The notes below the pieces were generated by a model, which was given only the letters and a program-made list of their open reading frames with translations, searched no databases and was not told the origin of the DNA. The position numbers and the translations under genes are program-made. Below, piece by piece: positions 3,430 through 61,195 of a DNA stretch of 64,000 nucleotides; the stretch's first letter is position 1, and each line of letters begins with the position of its first letter. Origin of the DNA: Squalus acanthias (taxonomy: Eukaryota). Location: assembly GCA_030390025.1 (NCBI GenBank), contig CM059430.1, forward strand, positions 32,736,001 to 32,800,000. The letters run 5' to 3'.

Positions 3430-4908
3430 TTTAATTTTCTTCTCAGGATATGCACAACAATGGAAAAGCCACATTTTTATTGCCCATTCTTAGTTGCCTT
3501 AAGAAGGTGGTCATGGATCGTCTCCTTGAACCACTGCAGTTGCTTTGCTGATGGTGCTGCCACAATGGTGTTGGCTCAGCAATGATGTAGGAGTGGCAGT
3601 ATATGTTCAAGTCAGGATAGTGTGTGATTTGGAGGAGAACTGGCGTTTCAATGATATTACTGATCTTATCCTGCCTGGTGGTAGAAGTTAGGAGCTGCTG
3701 TTGAAGTAACCTTGATAAATTGCTGTAGTGTATCCTGTAGATATTACATACTGCAGCCACAGTGTGCCAGTAATGGAGGGTAGCTATTGAGTCCAGTGGT
3801 AGGAGCACCAGACAAGCAAGCTACTCTATGCTGGATGGTACAGAGCGGAGTGTTGTTGCACCTGCACCCAAACAGACGACCAATGTTCCCTCTAAAATTT
3901 TGTTGTTGTGCGTGGCCAGATTTTCTCAATGCGCAATACCTTTAAATTTTTTGTGCGGCCACTGCGTGGTATCTGAGAGCTTGTGCGTGGTCTGCGCTGT
4001 ACCTTCAGGATTGCTGCACGCCCGCGGGCAGCTTCGAGGAAACATTGCAGGTGACTGGTGAGTATTCCATCAGACTCCTGATTTGTGCCTTGTAGATGGT
4101 GGAGAGGCTTTCAGGGGTTCAGAGGAGAGCCAATTGTTACAGTGCACCCAGCCTCTGACCGGCTCGTGTAGCCATATTGTTTATATGGTTGGACCAGTTA
4201 AACTTCTGATCATTGGTGACCTCCAGGATGTTGATGGTGGTGCCATTGAAGATCAGGGGAGGTAGTTGGGCGTTTTTTTGTTGAAGTTAGTCATTACCTG
4301 GTGCTTATGTTATCTGGCATGTGTCAGATCTTACTGCAGACTGGCAGGGCTGCTTCATTATTGGAGGAGTTGTAAATACAGTTGAACACTCTAGAATCAT
4401 CAGTGAACTGCTCACATATGACCTTATGATGGAGGCAAGGTCACTGTAGAAACAGCTGAAGATTGTTGGGCAAAGAGCATTCCTGGAGCAACGTACTGAG
4501 GCTTCAATGATTGAAATCCAACAGCCACAATCATCTTCCTTTGTGTCAGGTATGACTGCAGCTTTGACCTCCCAGTTTTGCTAGGGCTCCTGGGTATCAG
4601 ACTCGGTCATACCCTGCCTTGATGTTGAGGACTGCTACTCTCACCTCACTTATGGCATTCAACTCTTGCATGCATGCCTGGATCAAGGATATGACAAGAT
4701 TTGAAGCCGACAGCTTCTGGAAGAACCTGAACTGAGCATCAGCGAGCAGTGAGCTGTTGCTTGATGGCAGTGTTGATGATTCCTTCCATTATTTTACTGA
4801 TTACTAGAAGGACGTGGATAGGGTGGTAATTGACCTGGTTATATTTGCCTTAATTTTTGTGGATAAGACATACCTACACAATTTTTAACATTGTTGGGTA
4901 AATGCCAG
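3430..4908 (-). mobile_element. Degenerate 5'-truncated LINE (RT and 3' tail), same family as 56379-59613
   Basis: ORF 3443-3808 (HTVAAVCNIYRIHYSNLSRLLQQ) matches ORF 56631-56960 (RTVAAVCTIYKMHCSNSPRLLRQ); colinear nucleotide similarity. Confidence 0.85.
3881..4047. mobile_element. hAT-like MITE (167 bp) nested in the LINE
   Basis: TIR CAATGTTCCCTC / GAGGAAACATTG; imperfect 8-bp TSD CAGACGAC / CAGGTGAC. Confidence 0.65.
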
Positions 4909-38584: not shown

Positions 38585-38773
38585 TTTTTTAAAAATTCAT
38601 TAATGGGATCAGGGCGTCGCTGGCAATGCCAGCATTTATTGCCCATCCCTAGTTGCCCTTGAGAAGGTTGTGGTGAGCCGCCTTCTTGAACCGCTGCAGT
38701 CCGTGTGGTGATGGTACTCCCACAGTGCTGTTAGGTAGGGAGTTCCAGGATTTTGACCCAGCGATGATGAAGG
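38585..38773 (-). mobile_element. 3' tail fragment of the tRNA-headed LINE family
   Basis: Closely matches 56381-56569. Confidence 0.85.
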
Positions 38774-52397: not shown

Positions 52398-52700
52398 AAA
52401 GGATCTTAGCTCTGAAAATCAAGAAGTAGAATCAGTTTGGGTGGAGCTAAGAAATAGCAAGGGGCAGAAAACATTGGTGGGAGTTGTTTATAGGCCCCCA
52501 AATAGTAATTGTAATGTAGAGTATAAATCAGGAAATTAGAGGCGCATGTAACAAGGGTAATACAGTAATCATGGGGGACTTTAATTTACATATAGACTGG
52601 GCAAACCAAATTTGCAGTAATAGTGTGGAGGACGAATTCATAGAATGTATGCAAGATAGTTTTCTAGATCAGTATGTTGAGGAACCAAGTAGGGAACAGG

Positions 52701-55700
52701 CCACATATCTTTCACAGCCACATATCTTTCCTCAGCAACTGTCTCCGGCTCCGACTTACTCCACGTGGATTCCAACTGAAATTCCACCCTTCGTGTTTTG
52801 GATCCACCCAGGACTACAGATATCTCCAAGATATTCAGCGTTCCTCGAACCACTGCTCTCGCCGTATCCTGAGATCCACGCTGAATGCCATGCAATGCCA
52901 CGTGAACACTCTCGACCTCTCTCTTCAGCAGCACCGACTCACTCTATCTCAAAGCTGTCCTGGTCCGCAGTTCCATTTCATCCTTCGCCTCATCCGGCGC
53001 TTTAACAAAAAACTTTATTTCTTCCTTTCAGGTGTCAAGGATCGCAAGATTCAACAACTCTTGGACACCAACGCCCCTCTGGAACCTTCTTCCCCTTCAC
53101 TTTCCTCTGGCCCTATCCCTTCTCCCAATCTCACCCACTGCTGCGTTTTCACTATCCCCTCTGACCTTCCCCTCTCTGACCCCGAACGATTAGTCCTTAG
53201 CAAAGGCCTGAGCTTCATCCCCTTACGCCTCCACCTCAATGAATTTCGAGCTCGGCATGATGCTGAGCTCTTTTTCCGCCTGCCTTCATCTCCGTGCCCA
53301 CTTCTTTGGCCAGGAGTCTTCCCCCCGCACAGCTGACCCTTTCTCCCGCTTTCAGAATTCTCGTTCTACCTGGACCCCTCCCTCTTGCCTCTGAACCTCT
53401 CTAGATCTTTTCATTGCAAACTGCCGGCGTGACATTGGCCGTCTCCGTTTCTCTGCTCCACTCACTCACTCCAACCTACCTCCCTCTGAACTTGCAGCAC
53501 TCCATTCTCTCAGATCCAACCCTAACATTGTCATTAAACCTGCTGACAAGGGTGGTGCTGTTGTTGTTTGGCGTACCGACCTCTACCTAGCGGAAACTGA
53601 ACGCCAACTCTCCGACACCTCCTCCTACCTCCGCCTGGACCATGACCCCACTACCGAACATCAAGCCACCGTTTCCAAGACTGTCACTGACCTCATCTCC
53701 TCTGGAGATCTTCCCCCCACGACTGCCAACCTCATAGTTCCCCAACCCCGCACAGCCAGCTTCTACCTCCTTCCCAAGATCCACAAACAGGACTGCCCTG
53801 GTAGACCCATCGTTTCAGCCTGTTCTTGCCTCACAGAACTTATCTCTTCCTATCTCGACTCTATTTTTTCTCCCCTTGTCCAGTCTCTTCCCACCTACAT
53901 CCGCTACTCTTCTGACGCCCTCCGCCACTTTAACAGTCTCCTGGCCCCAACAGCCTCCTTTTCACTATGGACGTACAATCCCTCTACATCTCCATCCCCC
54001 ACCAGATGGCCTGAGGGAGCTCCGCTTCTTCCTTGAACAGAGGCCCAACCAGTCCCCATCCACCACCACCCTCCTCCGCCTGGCTGAACTTGTTCTCACA
54101 TTGAACAACTTCTCCTTTGACTCCACTCACTTCCTCCAAATCAAAGGTGTTGCTATGGGAACCCGCATGGGTCCTAGCTATGCCTGCCTTTTCGTGGGAT
54201 ATGTGGAACATTCTCTGTTCCAGTCCTACTCAGGTCCCCTCCCTCACCTCTTTTTCTGGTACATTGATGACTGTATCGGTGCCGTTTCCTGCTCTCGCCC
54301 TGAACTAGATAATTTCATTCACTTTGCTTCCAATTTCCACCCTTCCCTCACCTTCACATGGTCCATCTCCGACTCTTCCCTTCCCTTCCTCGACTTCTCC
54401 GTCTCCAGCCCTGGGGATAGGTTATTGACAAACATTTACTACAAGCCCACTGACTCCCACAGCTACCTGGACTACACTTCCTCCCACCTCGCTTCCTGTA
54501 AGGACTCTATTCCATTCTCCCAGTTTCTCCGTCTCCGCCGCATCTGCTCTGATGATGCCACCTTCCATATCAGTGCTTCGACATATCTTCCTTTTTCCTC
54601 AACCGAGGATTCCCCTCTACTGTGGTTGACACGGCCCTTGACCGTGTCCGTTCTATCTCCCGCACTTCTGCCCTCACCCCTGCCCCTCCCTCCCTCCCGG
54701 AACCACAAGAGAGATCCCCTTGTCCTCACCTTTCACCCCACCAGCCTCCACATTCAATGAATCATCCTCCGCCATTTCCGCCACCTCCAGCGTGATACCA
54801 CCACCAAACACATCTTCCCCTCACCTCCCCTTTCAGCATTCCGAAGGGACCGCTCCCTCCGCGACACCCTGGTCCACTCCTCTATCACCCCCAACACCCC
54901 TTCCCCTTCGCCCGGCACCTTCCCGTGCAAGCGCAGGAGATGCAACACATGCCCTTATACCTCCCCCCTTCCCACTGCCCAGGGCCCCAAACACCCCTTC
55001 CAGGTGAAACAGCGATTTACTTGTACTTCTTGCAATTTAGTATACTGTATTCGCTGCTCACGATGCGGTCTCCTCCACATTGGGGAGACCAAACGTAGAT
55101 TGGGTGACCACTTTGCGGAACACCTCCGTTCAGTCCGTAAGGGGGACCCCGAGCTTCCGGTCGCCTGTCACTTTAATTCTCCGCTCCACTCCCACTCAGA
55201 TCTCACCCTCCTCGGTCTCTTGCATTGTTCCACTGAAGCTCAGCGTAAGCTCGAGGAACAGCGCCTCATCTTTCGATTAGGCACTTTACAACCTTCTGGA
55301 CTCAACATAGAGTTGACCAATTTCAGATCATAACCTCGGCCCCTATCATATATATATTTTTTATCCACACCTTTTGTTTGTGTCTTTTCTTCTCTCCCAC
55401 ATGGCAGCTGTCTTTCATTCTGCCAGCGCAATTTACACTTCATCTAGAGCCATCCTTTGTTTCTTAACCTGTCCCATTACCATCTCCTTTTGCCTTGAAT
55501 ATCTCTTAATGTCTCTTAACCTCTCCTGCCTTCTATCCTATCACTGACCTTCCCTTTTGTTCTTTCATCCCCTCCCCACTTTCCCAGCTCCTACACTTTC
55601 TTAAAAATCTGTTCCATTTCCTGCTTTTTTCAGATTCTGATGAAAGGTTATCGACCTGAAACGTTAACTCTGTTTCTCTCTTCACAGATGCTGCCTGACC

Positions 55701-55770: not shown

Positions 55771-56630
55771 TAGGGAACAGGTTACTTTAGATCTAGTATT
55801 GTGCAATGAGAAAGAGTTAATTAATTACCTTGTAGTAAAGGGGCCTTTAGGGAAGAGTGACCCTAATATGATAGAATTTTATATTGAGTTTGAAAGTGAT
55901 TTAGTTAAATCCGAAACTAGGGTCTTAAATCTAAACAAAGAAAACTACGTAGGTATGAGGGGCGAGATGGCTAAGGTAGATTGGGAAACTACATTAAAAG
56001 GTATGACGGTGGAGAAGCAATGGCTTGTATTTAAAGAATGAATACATAATTTACAACAAATATACATTCCCTTAAGGCACAAAAACCCCACAGGAAAAGT
56101 GGTCCAACTGTGGCTAACAAGAAAAGTTAAAGATAGTATTCGATCAAAGGAAGAGGCTTATAATGTTGCCAAAAAGAGTAGTAAGCCTGAGGATTGGGAG
56201 GATATTAGAATTCAGCAAAGGAGGACCAAGAAATTGATAAAGAAAGGGAAAATAGAATGAGAGTAAACTAGTGAGAGACATAAAAACAGACTGTAAAAGC
56301 TTCGAAAGGGATGTAAAAAGGAAAAGATTACCAAAAGTAAATGTGGGTTCCTTACAGGCTGAGACAGGAGGAAATTATTATTTTTTTAAAATTTATTTAT
56401 GGAAACTGGGCGTCGCTGGCAATGCCAGCATTTATTACCCATCCCTAGATGCCCTTGAGAAGGTGGTGGTGAGCCGCCTTCTTGAACCGCTGCAGTCCGT
56501 GTGGTGATGGTACTCCCACAGTGCTGTTAGAGAGGGAGTCCCAGGATTTTGAACCAGCGACGATGAAGGATCGGCGATATACTTCTAAGTCAGGATGGTG
56601 TGTGACTTGGAGGGGAACTTGGAGGTGGTG

Positions 56631-59280
56631 TTATTCCCATGTGCCTGCTGCCCTTGTCCTTCTAGGTAGAAGAGGTCGCGGGTTTGGGAGGTGCTGCCGA
56701 AGAAGCCTTGGCGAGTTGCTGCAGTGCATCTTGTAGATGGTACACACTGCAGCTACGGTACGCCGGTGGTGGAGGGAATGAATGTTTAAGGTGGTGGATG
56801 GGGTGTCAATCAAGCGGGCTGCTTTGTCCTGGATGGTGTCGAGCTTCTTGAGTGTTGTTGGAGCTGCACTCATCCAGGCAAGTAGAGAGTATTCCATCAC
56901 ACTCCTTACTTGTGCCTTGTAGATGGTGGAAAGGCTTTGGGGAGTCAGGAGGTGAGACACTCACCGCAGAATACCTAGTCTCTGACCTGCTCTTGTTGCC
57001 ACAGTGTTTATGTGGCTGGTCCAGTTAAGTTTCTGGTTAATGATGACGCCCAGGATGTTGATAGTGGGGGATTCGGCGATGTTCATGCCATTGAATGTCA
57101 AGGGGAGGTGGTTAGACTCTCGCTTGTTGGAGATAGTCATAGCCTGGCACTTCTGTGGCACGAATGTTACCTGCCACTTATCAGCCCAAGCCTGAACGTC
57201 GTCCAGGTCTTGCTGCATTTGGGCATGGACTGCTTCATTATCTGTGGAGTTGTGAATGGCGCTGAACACTGTGCAGTCATCAGCGAACATCCCCATTTCT
57301 GACCTTATGTTGGAGGGAAGGTGATTGATGAAGCAGTTGAAGATGGTTGGGCCTAGGACACTGACCTGAAGAACTCCTGCAGCGATGTCCTGGGGCTGTG
57401 ATGATTGACCTTCAACCACCACAACCATCTTCCTTTGTGCTAGGTATGACTCCAGCCAGTGGCGCGTTTTCCCCCTGATTCCCATTGACTTCAGTTTTAC
57501 TAGGGCTCCTTGATGACAGACTCGGTCAAATGCTGCCTTGATGTCAAGGGCAGTCACTCTCACCTCACCTCTGGAATTCAGCTCCTTTGTCCATGTTTGG
57601 ACCAAGGCTGTAATGAAGTCAGGAGCCGAGTGGTCTTGGCGGAATCCAAACTAGGCATCAGTGAGTAAGTGCCGCTTGATAGCACTGTCGATGACACCTT
57701 CCATCACTTTGCTGATGATTGAGAGTAGACTGATGGGGCGGTAATTGGCAGGGTTGAATTTGTCCTGCTTTCTGTGGACAGGACATACCTGGGCAGTTTT
57801 CCACATTGTTGGATAGATGCCAGTGTTGTAGCTGTACTGGAACAGCTTGGCTAGAGGCGCGGCTAGTTCTGGAGCACAAGTCTTTAGCACGATAGCCGGG
57901 ATGTTGTCGGGGCCCATAGCCTTTGCTATATCCAGTGTGCTCAGCCGTTTCTTGATATCACGTGGAGTGAATCGAATTGGCTGAAGACTGGCTTCTGTGA
58001 TGGTGGGGACCTCGGGAGTAGGCTGATATGGATCATCCACTCGTCACTTCTAGCTGAAGTTGGTCACGTGCTGGGCTCCACCATCATTGAGGATGGGGAT
58101 ATTCTTGGAGCCTCCTCCTCCTGTTAGTTGCTTAATGGTCCACCACCATTCACGACTGGATGTGGCAGGACTGCAGAGCTTTGATCTGATACGTTGATTG
58201 TGGGATCGCTTAGCCCTGTCTATTGCATGCTGCCTCCACTTTTTAGCATGCAGGTAGTCCTGTGTTGCAGCTTCCCCAGGTTGGCACCTCATTTTTAGGT
58301 ACGCCTGGTGCTGCTCTTCTACACTCGTTGTTGAACCAGGGTTGGTCCCCTGGCTTGATGGTAATGGTAGAGTGAGGGATATGCCGAGCCATGAGGTTAC
58401 AGATTATGGTGGAATACAATTCTGCTGCTGCCCCACAGCGCCTCATGGATGCCCAGTTTCAAGCTGCTAGATCTGTTCTGAATCTATCTCATTTAGCACG
58501 GTGGTAGTGCTACACAACACGATGGAGGGTGTTCTCAGTGTGAAGATGGGACTTCGTCTCCGCAATGACTGTGCGGTGGTCACTGCTACCAATGCAGTCA
58601 TGGACTGCATCTGCGATAGGTAGATTGGTGAGGACGAGGACAAGTAGGTTTTTCCCTCGTGTTGGTTCACTCATCACCTGTCGCAGGCCCAGACTCGCAG
58701 TTATGTCCTTCCGGTCTTGGCCAACTCGGTCAGTAGTGGTGCTACCGAGCCACTCTTGGTGATGGACATTGAAGTCCCCCACCCAGCGTACATTCTGTGC
58801 CCTTGCTACTCTCAGTGCTTCTTCCAAGTGTTGTTCAACATGGAGGAGTACTGATTCATCAGCTGAGGGAGGGCAGTAGGTGGTAATCAGCAGGAGGTTT
58901 CCTTGCCCATGCTTGACCTGAAGCCATGAGACTTCATGGGGTCCGGAGTCAATGTTGAGGACTCCCAGGGCCACTCCTCCCTGACTGTATACCACTGTGC
59001 CACCACCCCTGGTGGGTCTGTCCTGCCGGTGAGACAGGACATACCCAGGGATGGTGATGGAGGAGTTCAGGATATTAGCTGAAAGGTATGATTCTGTGAG
59101 TATGACTATGTCAGGCTGTTGCTTGACTAGTCTGTGGGACAGCTCTCCCAATTTTGGCACAAGTCCCCAGATGTTGGTGAGGATGACTTTGCAGGGTTGA
59201 TTGGGCTGGGTGTGCCGTTGCCAGTACCGAGGTCAATGCCGGGTGGTCCATCTGGTTTCATTCTTATTATTTTGTTTCAT
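56631..59280 (-). pseudogene. APE endonuclease-reverse transcriptase ORF of the tRNA-headed LINE
   Basis: In-frame ATG at 59280; LTNIWGL, LTES, GDFN, SSDH, NYRPISLL, DIKAAFD, FADD; a few stops and frameshifts. Confidence 0.9.
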
Positions 59281-59522
59281 AGCGGTTAGTTACAACTGAG
59301 TGACTTGCTAGGCCATTTCAGAGGGCAGTTAAGAGTCAACCACATTGCTGTGGGTCTGGAGTCACATATAGGCCAGACCAGGTAAGGACGGCAGATTTCT
59401 TCAGGACATTAGTGAACCAGATGGGTTTTTACGACAATCCAATAGTTTCACGTTACCATTACTGATACTAGCTTTTTTTATTCCAGATTTATTTAATTAA
59501 CTGAATTTAAATTGCCCAACTG

Positions 59523-59613
59523 CCTTGGTGGGATTTGAACTCACGTCTCTGGATCATAAGTCCAGGCCTCTGGATTACTAGCCCAGTGACATTACCACTA
59601 CGCTACCATTCCC
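59523..59613 (-). promoter_or_regulatory. tRNA-derived internal Pol III promoter
   Basis: A box TAGCGTAGTGG (59605-59595) starting at about +9; B box GTTCAAATC (59540-59532). Confidence 0.85.
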
Positions 59614-61195
59614 TTTTATAATAGGGAATAAGGAAATGGCAGAGAAATTAAACAAATACTTTGTGTCTGTCTTCGCGGAAGAAGACGCAAAAAACTTCCC
59701 GGAAATAGTGGAGAACCAAGGCTCTAGCAAGATTAAGGAACTGAAAGAAATTAGTATTAGTAAAAAAAATAGTACTGGAGAAATTAATGGGACTGAAAGC
59801 CAATAAATCCCCTGGACCTGATGGCCTACATCCTAGGGTTTTGAAAGAGGTGGCTATAGAGATAGTGGATGCATTGGTTGTCATTTTCCAAAATTCCATA
59901 GATTCTGGAACGGTTCCCATGGATTGGAAGGTAGCAAATGTAACCCCACTACTTAAGAAAGGAAGGAGAGAGAAAACGGGGAACTACAGACCAGTTAGCC
60001 TGACATCAATAGTCGGGAAAATGCTAGAATCTATTATTAAGGACGTGGTAACAGGGCACTTAGAAAATAATAATAGGATTGGGCAGAGTCAACACGGATT
60101 TATGAAAGGAAAATCGTGTTTGACAAATCTGTTAGAGTTTTTTGAGGTTGTAACTAGCAGAATAGATAAGGGGGAACCAGTGGATGTGGTGTATTTGGAT
60201 TTTCAGAAGGCATTCGATAAGGCGCCACACAAGAGGTTATTAAACAAAATTAGGGCTCATGGGATTGGAGCATGGATTGAGGATTGGCTAACGGACAGAA
60301 AACAGAGAGTAGGAATAAACGGGTCATTTTCAGGTTGGCAGGCTGTAACTAATGGGGTACCACAAGGATAAGAGCTTAAGCCTCAGCTATTCACAGTCTA
60401 CATCAATGATTTGGATGAGGGGACCAAATGTAATATATCCAAGTTTGCTGATGATACAAAGCTGGGTGGGAATGTAAGTTGTGAGGAGGATGCAAGGAGG
60501 CGTCAAGGGGATATAGACAGGCTAAGTGAGTGGGCAAGAACATGGCAAATGGAATATAATGTGGAGAAATGTAAAGTTACCACTTTGGTAGGAAAAATAG
60601 AAAAGCCGAGTATTTTTTAAATGGTGAGAGATTGGGAAATGTTGGTGTTCAGAGGGACCTGGGTGTCCTTGTACACGAATCACTGAAAGGTAACATGCAG
60701 GTACAGCAAGCAATTAGAAAAGCAAATGGTATGTTGGCCTTAATTACAAGAGGATTTGAGTATAAGAGTAAAGACGTCTTACTGCAGTTATATAGGGCCC
60801 TGGTGAGACCACACCTGGAGTATTGTGTACAGTTTTGGAGTTCTTTGAGGATGTAACAAGCAGGGCGGACAAGGGTGAACCAGTGGATGTAGTGTATTTG
60901 GATTTCCAGAAGGCATTCGATAAGGTGCCACATAAAAGGTTACTGCAAAAGATAAGAGCTCACAGAGCTGGGGTAATATATTAGCATGGATAGAGAATTG
61001 GCTAACTAACAGAAAGCAGAGAGTCGGGATAAATGGGTCATTTTCTGGTTGGCAAACAGGTGCCACAAGGATCGGTGCTGGGGCCCCAACTATTTACAAT
61101 CTACATTAATGACTTGGATGAAGGGATCGAGTGTAATGTAGCCAAGTTTGCGGATGATACAAAGATGGGTGGAAAAGCAAGTTGTGCAGAGGACT

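Follow-up and report, generated by a model that had tools for sequence, protein, structure and literature searches.

In a 64,000-nt stretch of the genome of the shark Squalus acanthias (assembly GCA_030390025.1, contig CM059430.1, positions 32,736,001 to 32,800,000; hereafter the window), the block 56379..59613 on the minus strand is a dead copy of an autonomous long interspersed element (LINE) of Zenon type, which has a single, AUG-less open reading frame (ORF), bears a tRNA-derived head and is abundant in the shark. For the intact element we propose a joint model, to which we assign a probability of roughly 0.47 on sequence evidence: RNA polymerase III (Pol III) would transcribe the headed LINE, and the frame of this LINE would be entered at the 3' end of a conserved body in a manner resembling entry at internal ribosome entry sites (IRESs). 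Downwards from 59613 the copy comprises a tRNA-like head, an AT-rich spacer, the conserved body, a basic leader, an APE endonuclease (EN), a reverse transcriptase (RT) and an A-rich tail ending at 56379. The features are located as follows.

56379..59613, minus strand: whole element, a near full-length decayed copy of a 3.3-kb single-ORF Zenon-type LINE (sequence, copy alignment, by-eye consensus match).
59520..59613, minus strand: head derived from a tRNA, in which an anticodon-like arm is duplicated (59586-59570 and 59565-59549); Rfam tRNA match below the gathering score.
59595..59605, minus strand: Pol III A box (sequence; kept in four subfamilies and, by eye, in five published consensuses).
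59532..59540, minus strand: Pol III B box (evidence as for the A box).
59296..59440, minus strand: highly conserved body, common to the short interspersed elements (SINEs) of this genome (from copies; five elasmobranch consensuses nearly identical by eye).
59296..59321, minus strand: 3' hairpin of the body with a 7-nt loop (59311-59305), in which AGC at loop positions 3-5 is a predicted anticodon mimic (fold of copy L059).
59281..59283, minus strand: GCT codon, 12 nt past the hairpin; the reading frame is fixed here, and pairing of this codon with the loop AGC is predicted.
59194..59280, minus strand: basic Lys/Arg-rich N-terminal extension in the EN frame; two of its features, an ATG at 59280 and a TGA at 59235, come from copy-specific decay.
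58510..59193, minus strand: APE endonuclease domain (Pfam PF14529, E 9e-10; PF03372, E 1e-6).
56964..57650, minus strand: reverse transcriptase domain (Pfam PF00078, E 1e-24) with FADD at 57287-57276.
56379..56530, minus strand: ORF end (family stop 56447-56445), short 3' untranslated region (UTR) and A-rich tail, common to the SINEs.
55800..56378, plus strand: host CR1 ORF2 left of the insertion; a 3-4 bp duplication ends at 56378.
59614..60371, plus strand: host CR1 ORF2 right of the insertion.

The initial annotation had described a tRNA-derived head with A and B boxes directly upstream of an EN-RT ORF, without ORF1, in a single site of a host CR1 ORF2. This description is borne out by the two boxes, a sub-threshold match of the head to the Rfam tRNA model (24.5 bits, E 0.008), the Pfam domains for EN and RT, and comparison with an uninterrupted CR1 copy. 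Since the host CR1 reads on across the element with a 3-4 bp duplication, the block is attributed to one insertion event; neither host DNA nor an A-tail lies between its head and its ORF. The copy diverges by 3.3% from the column majority of its family and carries nine in-frame stops and eight deletions.

Thousands of copies carry head, body, the 971-codon EN-RT frame and tail together as a single mobile unit. Exact 22-nt patterns of the junction occur in the genome 2,685 times for a young and 294 times for an old type, and reversed controls never, so that the junction is not unique to this locus and the real family anticipated by the initial annotation exists. The similarity search within this genome scores the best 40 matches; with a head-EN junction query all 40 (the best of 7,647 candidates) span nearly the whole query. 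Anchored on EN only, 15 of 29 other loci extend to nucleotides 1-4 of the head, two of them interrupted, and each of the other 14 ends at a different point; these points are scattered and border on unrelated DNA. Full-length copies with ORF1 and a conventional 5' UTR, which the initial annotation had named as a refutation, or any alternative shared 5' end were not found among these 29 loci. Conversely, a head-only query continues into the leader in 29 of 29 other loci. Forty young-type junction matches were sampled from the start of the list, which follows chromosome order. Of these, 35 are LINEs that run into the ORF (18 of them extending to nucleotides 1-10), three are SINEs and two are unclear. 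Near full-length copies were present in 27 of 38 fetched regions; together with the window copy these 28 lie 2.8% from the column majority and have a single common open frame. Four subfamilies are 7.7, 5.0, 3.9 and 2.9% from their own column majorities. Sequencing runs under six organism labels contain 0.48-0.72 of the junction's words, contigs from three of the six cover the element completely, and one joins body to EN. Among shark proteins, those of Heptranchias and Heterodontus match at 72-83%. The recurrence of the same junction in thousands of copies and in other species refutes a chance juxtaposition or one-off template switch at the window locus, an explanation for which no support was found and whose probability is practically nil. 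Target-site duplications are uninformative on unit insertion (0 of 24 at least 6 bp long; mean 3.2 versus 2.7 in the null).

Around these copies a few irregularities were recorded. In the flanks of 91 heads, A is enriched at -2 (48 of 91), C is enriched at -1 (28 of 91) and G is depleted, which may reflect target preference or untemplated addition. In four copies (L051, L066, L117 and L120) a 3' piece of the same element, a repeat of its first 20 nt or an inverted part precedes the head. Near-identical SINE and truncated LINE copies recur at G000 C3:116-118 Mb (L313-L319), which suggests a segmental or tandem repeat array.

Zenon LINEs have been reported in elasmobranchs, where all of them lack ORF1 and end in a poly-A tail (Stuart et al. 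2026, PMC13343379, available part), and the headed LINE resembles them in its single APE-RT ORF, missing ORF1, poly-A tail and length of ca. 3.3 kb. It is identified as Zenon by an inspection by eye, in which it matches SquAca_Zenon-1 (3,314 nt; supplement of the same paper) over the first 400 nt, the range over which all published Zenon-1 consensuses were compared. The same head, body, hairpin and GCT are seen in CarCar, RhiTyp, ScyCan and HypSab Zenon-1 from white shark, whale shark, catshark and stingray. Thus, the element and its lack of ORF1 were already known, and two points of the initial annotation do not stand: the missing ORF1 is reported to be universal among Zenon elements rather than unusual, and the element, head included, is described in a supplementary consensus. 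In the accessible main text, tRNA, IRES and start codon do not occur and SINE appears only in a reference title; head, missing AUG, hairpin and SINE link are left undiscussed there. A tRNA-headed LINE or an IRES in a LINE or in the Deu domain of SINEs (see below) was not met with in the literature searched, which excluded Repbase, Dfam, subscription papers and the supplements of bioRxiv papers and PMC5499810. New here is the GCT frame start 12 nt after a hairpin with the complementary loop AGC.

The ORF evolved under purifying selection from the GCT codon onward. Family copies share the single 971-codon APE-RT ORF, without ORF1 and followed by a poly-A tail, and none of the four subfamilies has a majority stop within it. 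Fixed differences between subfamilies yield pN/pS values of 0.14-0.49, and the oldest and youngest subfamilies are separated by 42 synonymous and 34 non-synonymous changes (P 1.6e-9). Because the frame is open in four subfamilies and selected between them, the headed LINE is, as judged from its sequence, autonomous, in agreement with the initial annotation. The same selection largely refutes the view that the headed form is a non-autonomous chimera, in which a SINE 5' part is joined to a LINE body lacking ORF1 and whose copying in trans depends on a conventional partner that has a different 5' end. SINE and LINE RNAs are well known to undergo template switching (Nishihara et al. 2016, PMC4824008; PMC5499810, available part), the sampled SINE copies are older (10.9%) than the youngest LINE subfamily (2.9%), and a rare partner could be missed when the best 40 matches are scored. 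However, headed LINE subfamilies are as old as 7.7%, no other 5' end occurs in the 29 EN-anchored loci and the five published elasmobranch Zenon-1 consensuses all bear the head, and we regard such a chimera as very improbable.

The nearest database proteins are likewise single APE-RT ORFs of 930-985 residues, with 40-43% identity, on contigs of 3-4 kb. In a quick tree, which contained no named Zenon references, the RT groups with invertebrate-type single-ORF proteins, far from the host CR1. An EN search against longer proteins gave only two weak matches, viral contigs contained neither a protein relative nor a match to a 25-nt body motif, and prokaryote genome contigs contained distant relatives only. 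Among 92 loci from metagenomes and metagenome-assembled genomes, only two (L189 and L203) are close relatives with 5' ends; more distant loci have ATG or 2A-like starts and no match to the hairpin.

That the ORF has a non-AUG start is established or nearly so. In each of the four subfamilies the frame has no Met before codon 285, which lies beyond the EN domain. Where the distance from GCT to EN could be measured, it is a multiple of three in 26 of 35 copies of the young type and in 13 of 16 of the old type, with a mode of 99 nt, and leader changes are five synonymous to two non-synonymous in the EN frame versus 1/6 and 1/5 in the other two frames. No start is possible upstream of the GCT, because a stop lies three codons upstream of it in the young subfamilies and because the 11-nt linker of the whale-shark consensus, one base shorter, shifts an upstream TTG into another frame. 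The ATG at 59280, which is in frame and was taken as the ORF start in the initial annotation, has to be discarded: the position is ACG in 18, ACA in five and ATG in three of 28 copies, the ATG is a copy-specific product of CpG decay of ACG, and a likewise copy-specific TGA follows at 59235. An out-of-frame ATG ca. 20 nt downstream was rejected as well, as it is ATA in older subfamilies and its frame is not conserved. Codons 1-284, i.e. leader and EN, are devoid of Met in the four subfamilies compared with 14-17 in the rest, a gap which relatives do not have. In the leader of a few copies (L088, L098) a 14-nt deletion between short direct repeats brings a downstream out-of-frame ATG into frame with EN; it may represent recurrent decay or a minor AUG-started variant.

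The AGC in the 7-nt hairpin loop is complementary to the GCT, and all five elasmobranch consensuses have retained the hairpin as well as the GCT. The loop/GCT pairing was first proposed from shark copies alone, before L189 and L203 were found. These two relatives (53-56% identical to P0008) carry a hairpin directly before the ORF, with other stems and the same loop AGC, followed by linkers of 11 and 13 nt and a GCT-ACA start. They are the only two matches to a hairpin/GCT descriptor in the 581,932 bases of the 92 loci, for which 0.4 matches per set are expected by chance. L189 and L203 lack an A/B head and contain TTTT runs; since these invertebrate-type relatives have the module without the head, the hairpin/GCT module looks older than the tRNA head. 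L189:450-660 and L203:368-500 also share a 130-nt structured 5' UTR core, possibly a nested pseudoknot, with an invariant 11-nt loop; the core is about the size of type 6c IRESs, and L189 adds two hairpins.

This arrangement recalls the intergenic-region (IGR, type 6) IRESs of dicistroviruses, in which a non-AUG start is likewise set by a stem-loop at the 3' terminus, the loop of which pairs, past a short single-stranded linker, with a triplet in frame (PMC10516663, available sections). The layout of their pseudoknot I (PKI) is present as a sequence pattern, with predicted pairing, in the sharks, L189 and L203, and as in type 6 IRESs an ORF without AUG has its frame fixed right after the structure. 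A three-pair anticodon-codon helix is enough for the IRES of the dicistrovirus CrPV (PMC3517527, available sections). In contrast, the IGR IRES has a variable loop of 6-10 nt and up to two paired nucleotides instead of the linker of 11-13 nt found here, and type 6 IRESs are known from RNA viruses, with no sequence or Rfam match to the present element. IGR IRESs show no sequence similarity to cellular mRNA elements (bioRxiv 10.1101/2024.04.17.590008), and their occurrence in non-LTR elements has been raised only as a possibility (Luke et al. 2013, PMC3894237). Based on the sequence pattern, we consider it rather likely that the ORF is entered by a pseudoknot-type start at the hairpin/GCT.

An alternative is that Pol III RNA is indeed made, and that the ORF is entered by a near-cognate start or by reinitiation or frameshifting from an upstream ORF (uORF) in the body, the hairpin having another role such as RT binding. 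AUG-independent reinitiation at ORF2 is known for L1. The body contains upstream ATGs, one of which opens a 19-codon ORF ending just before the GCT in the youngest subfamily, and the codon after GCT is ACG in young copies. However, the uORF end varies between subfamilies and species, and both near-cognate candidates were rejected: in place of the ACG, older subfamilies and most other species have ACA and the ray has AAA, and the upstream TTG is blocked in young copies by the stop and lies in another frame in the whale-shark consensus. As the loop-codon complementarity also recurs in L189 and L203, entry by such a route appears unlikely, and the pseudoknot-type start is retained in the following.

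With respect to transcription, the A and B boxes are kept in the four subfamilies and the five elasmobranch consensuses, although the sequence between them has changed, and 91 distinct heads begin at the same GGG in unrelated flanks. No tRNA gene was detected in the window by ARAGORN. In one natural copy (L049) the match to the tRNA model covers positions 7-64 and includes an insertion of 22 nt, by which the anticodon arm is duplicated. In the published Zenon-1 heads the stem of the second arm is preserved, by eye, through changes on both sides between species, and for this reason the head fold seems to be selected too. Over the 3.3 kb of sense strand no TTTT is common to the copy majority, compared with 15 A4, 11 C4 and 9 G4 runs, and the TTTT density amounts to 0.10/kb in the element versus 3.84/kb in the host CR1 pieces; the headless relative L189 has seven TTTT within its ORF. 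Taken as sequence features, boxes and start site make it probable that Pol III transcribes the headed LINE. The scarcity of TTTT permits this rather than proves it, since codon-shuffle nulls expect only about two.

According to the joint model, TFIIIC and Pol III would use the A and B boxes and read the 3.3 kb, free of TTTT, up to genomic T-runs downstream. The resulting uncapped RNA would be unable to use cap-dependent scanning. Instead, the loop AGC would pair with the downstream GCU as in PKI of the dicistrovirus IGR IRESs, and decoding would begin at the codon after GCU without initiator tRNA. The IRES-like start would therefore explain the translation of an RNA likely made by Pol III, and a hairpin/GCT module predating the head would have made the capture of a Pol III promoter viable. 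EN-RT would then bind the tail in cis, copies would be inserted by target-primed reverse transcription, and deletions during reverse transcription would yield SINEs composed of head, body and tail.

Several observations weigh against this scenario. The evidence consists of DNA sequence, and the four sequencing runs examined are DNA or unlabelled contigs. All copies in this genome are decayed by ca. 3% or more, and only one of 28 is without an in-frame stop. The TTTT deficit is not significant against synonymous-codon nulls (about two expected; P 0.06-0.26 for five copies; the element has 19-20% T), and the headless relative L266 is also poor in TTTT (one seen, four expected). The loop pattern of the descriptor was written after L189 and L203 had been seen, and the non-shark support comes from two related elements. 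Loop and codon are invariant, and hence no compensatory change is found in the loop-codon pair, although the stems covary. The body folds no better than shuffled sequences (z 0.09), no Rfam IRES model matched the 5' regions of the shark element, L189 or L203, no convincing PKII or PKIII could be built (alternative pairings are possible), and the published L1.1 motifs were not found in a defensible position. Finally, one relative (P0005) is annotated as Met-Ala-Thr-Lys, with the Met directly before A-T-K (the codon itself was not seen), so that an AUG start may exist in its lineage, and a Met also precedes the EN domain in both L203 and L189, at different places.

The statistical weakness of the TTTT deficit also speaks for a different origin of the RNA, namely from RNA polymerase II (Pol II) or host read-through, with the tRNA head as a passenger kept for structure or stability and translation still starting at the hairpin/GCT. 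L189 and L203, which have this start without A/B boxes and with TTTT runs, indicate that the lineage works without Pol III. However, the A/B boxes persist across the four subfamilies and five elasmobranch consensuses, the 5' end of full-length copies coincides exactly with the tRNA-like +1, G is depleted at -1 (9 of 91), and the same head drives short SINEs. We therefore judge Pol II or read-through transcription of the headed LINE to be improbable and retain Pol III.

The short SINEs of this genome consist of head, body and tail, all three of which they have in common with the LINE, and are 10.9% diverged (n=29). In 30 old-type junction loci the head is joined to the tail at about a dozen different point pairs (as given by BLAST ends), three young-type SINEs retain the first LINE codons and then jump to the tail, and several similar joints occur in contigs of other organisms. 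Repeated internal deletion of the headed LINE accounts for these many different head-tail joints. It is thereby demonstrated, or close to it, that the SINEs arose repeatedly in this way, as the initial annotation had suggested; at the very origin, either LINE or SINE may have come first. The body is presumably the Deu domain and the short SINEs are presumably SacSINE1.

The published Deu-SINEs SacSINE1 and LmeSINE1 (ca. 400-460 bp) have the same layout of tRNA head, conserved body and LINE-type tail, and are described as non-coding with a body of unknown function (PMC5499810, available part; PMC4824008), whereas here a head and body of this layout form the 5' end of a coding LINE. As tail partner of SacSINE1, L2-2_CM was given with 78.6% (Luchetti et al. 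2017, PMC5499810, available part), and bivalve Deu SINEs bear CR1-Zenon tails (PMC11481361, available part). With tRNA-derived SINEs (SINE2) the headed LINE shares the head with A/B boxes, and it differs from them in its 3.3 kb and its selected 971-codon frame. In Bov-B/Bov-A/Bov-tA and in RTE and Vingi derivatives, SINE middle and tail also stem from the 5' and 3' ends of one LINE (Kojima 2018, PMC5786205); there, the small-RNA head was added after the deletion, whereas here it sits on the autonomous CR1-group element itself. The same work names RTE, Ingi, Vingi and R2 as the only sources of such bipartite derivatives and states that SINEs are unable to encode protein.

SINEs and LINEs are set apart by promoter type and coding capacity, and an autonomous LINE with a SINE head blurs this boundary. 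The head is kept across sharks and a ray, and the LINE sheds SINEs by deletion, which names a parent for a SINE family of Deu type. Why SINE central domains are conserved has been an open question (PMC4824008), to which the hairpin/GCT module offers a concrete answer, the recruitment of ribosomes to an uncapped RNA. If active, the module would extend type 6-like IRESs beyond RNA viruses and offer a natural way of expressing protein by means of Pol III. A wider proposal, which we advance tentatively and consider rather less probable than the joint model, is that a Pol III-transcribed coding retrotransposon possesses a dicistrovirus-like factor-independent IRES, of which the Deu domain of SINEs, including that of the amniote AmnSINE1, would be a remnant inherited from the 5' ends of Zenon LINEs. 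If true, reading Deu as a ribosome-binding module would give a function to an unexplained conserved SINE domain and place type 6-like IRESs in animal genomes.

Elsewhere in the window, an old relative of the RT region (67% identity) lies at 4060-4908 and a 3' fragment of the headed LINE family (93%) at 38585-38773, both on the minus strand. At 52668-55333 on the plus strand a broken RT ORF is followed by a GIY-YIG-like segment; Pfam gave no match on the RT piece, and the whole resembles a Penelope-like element.

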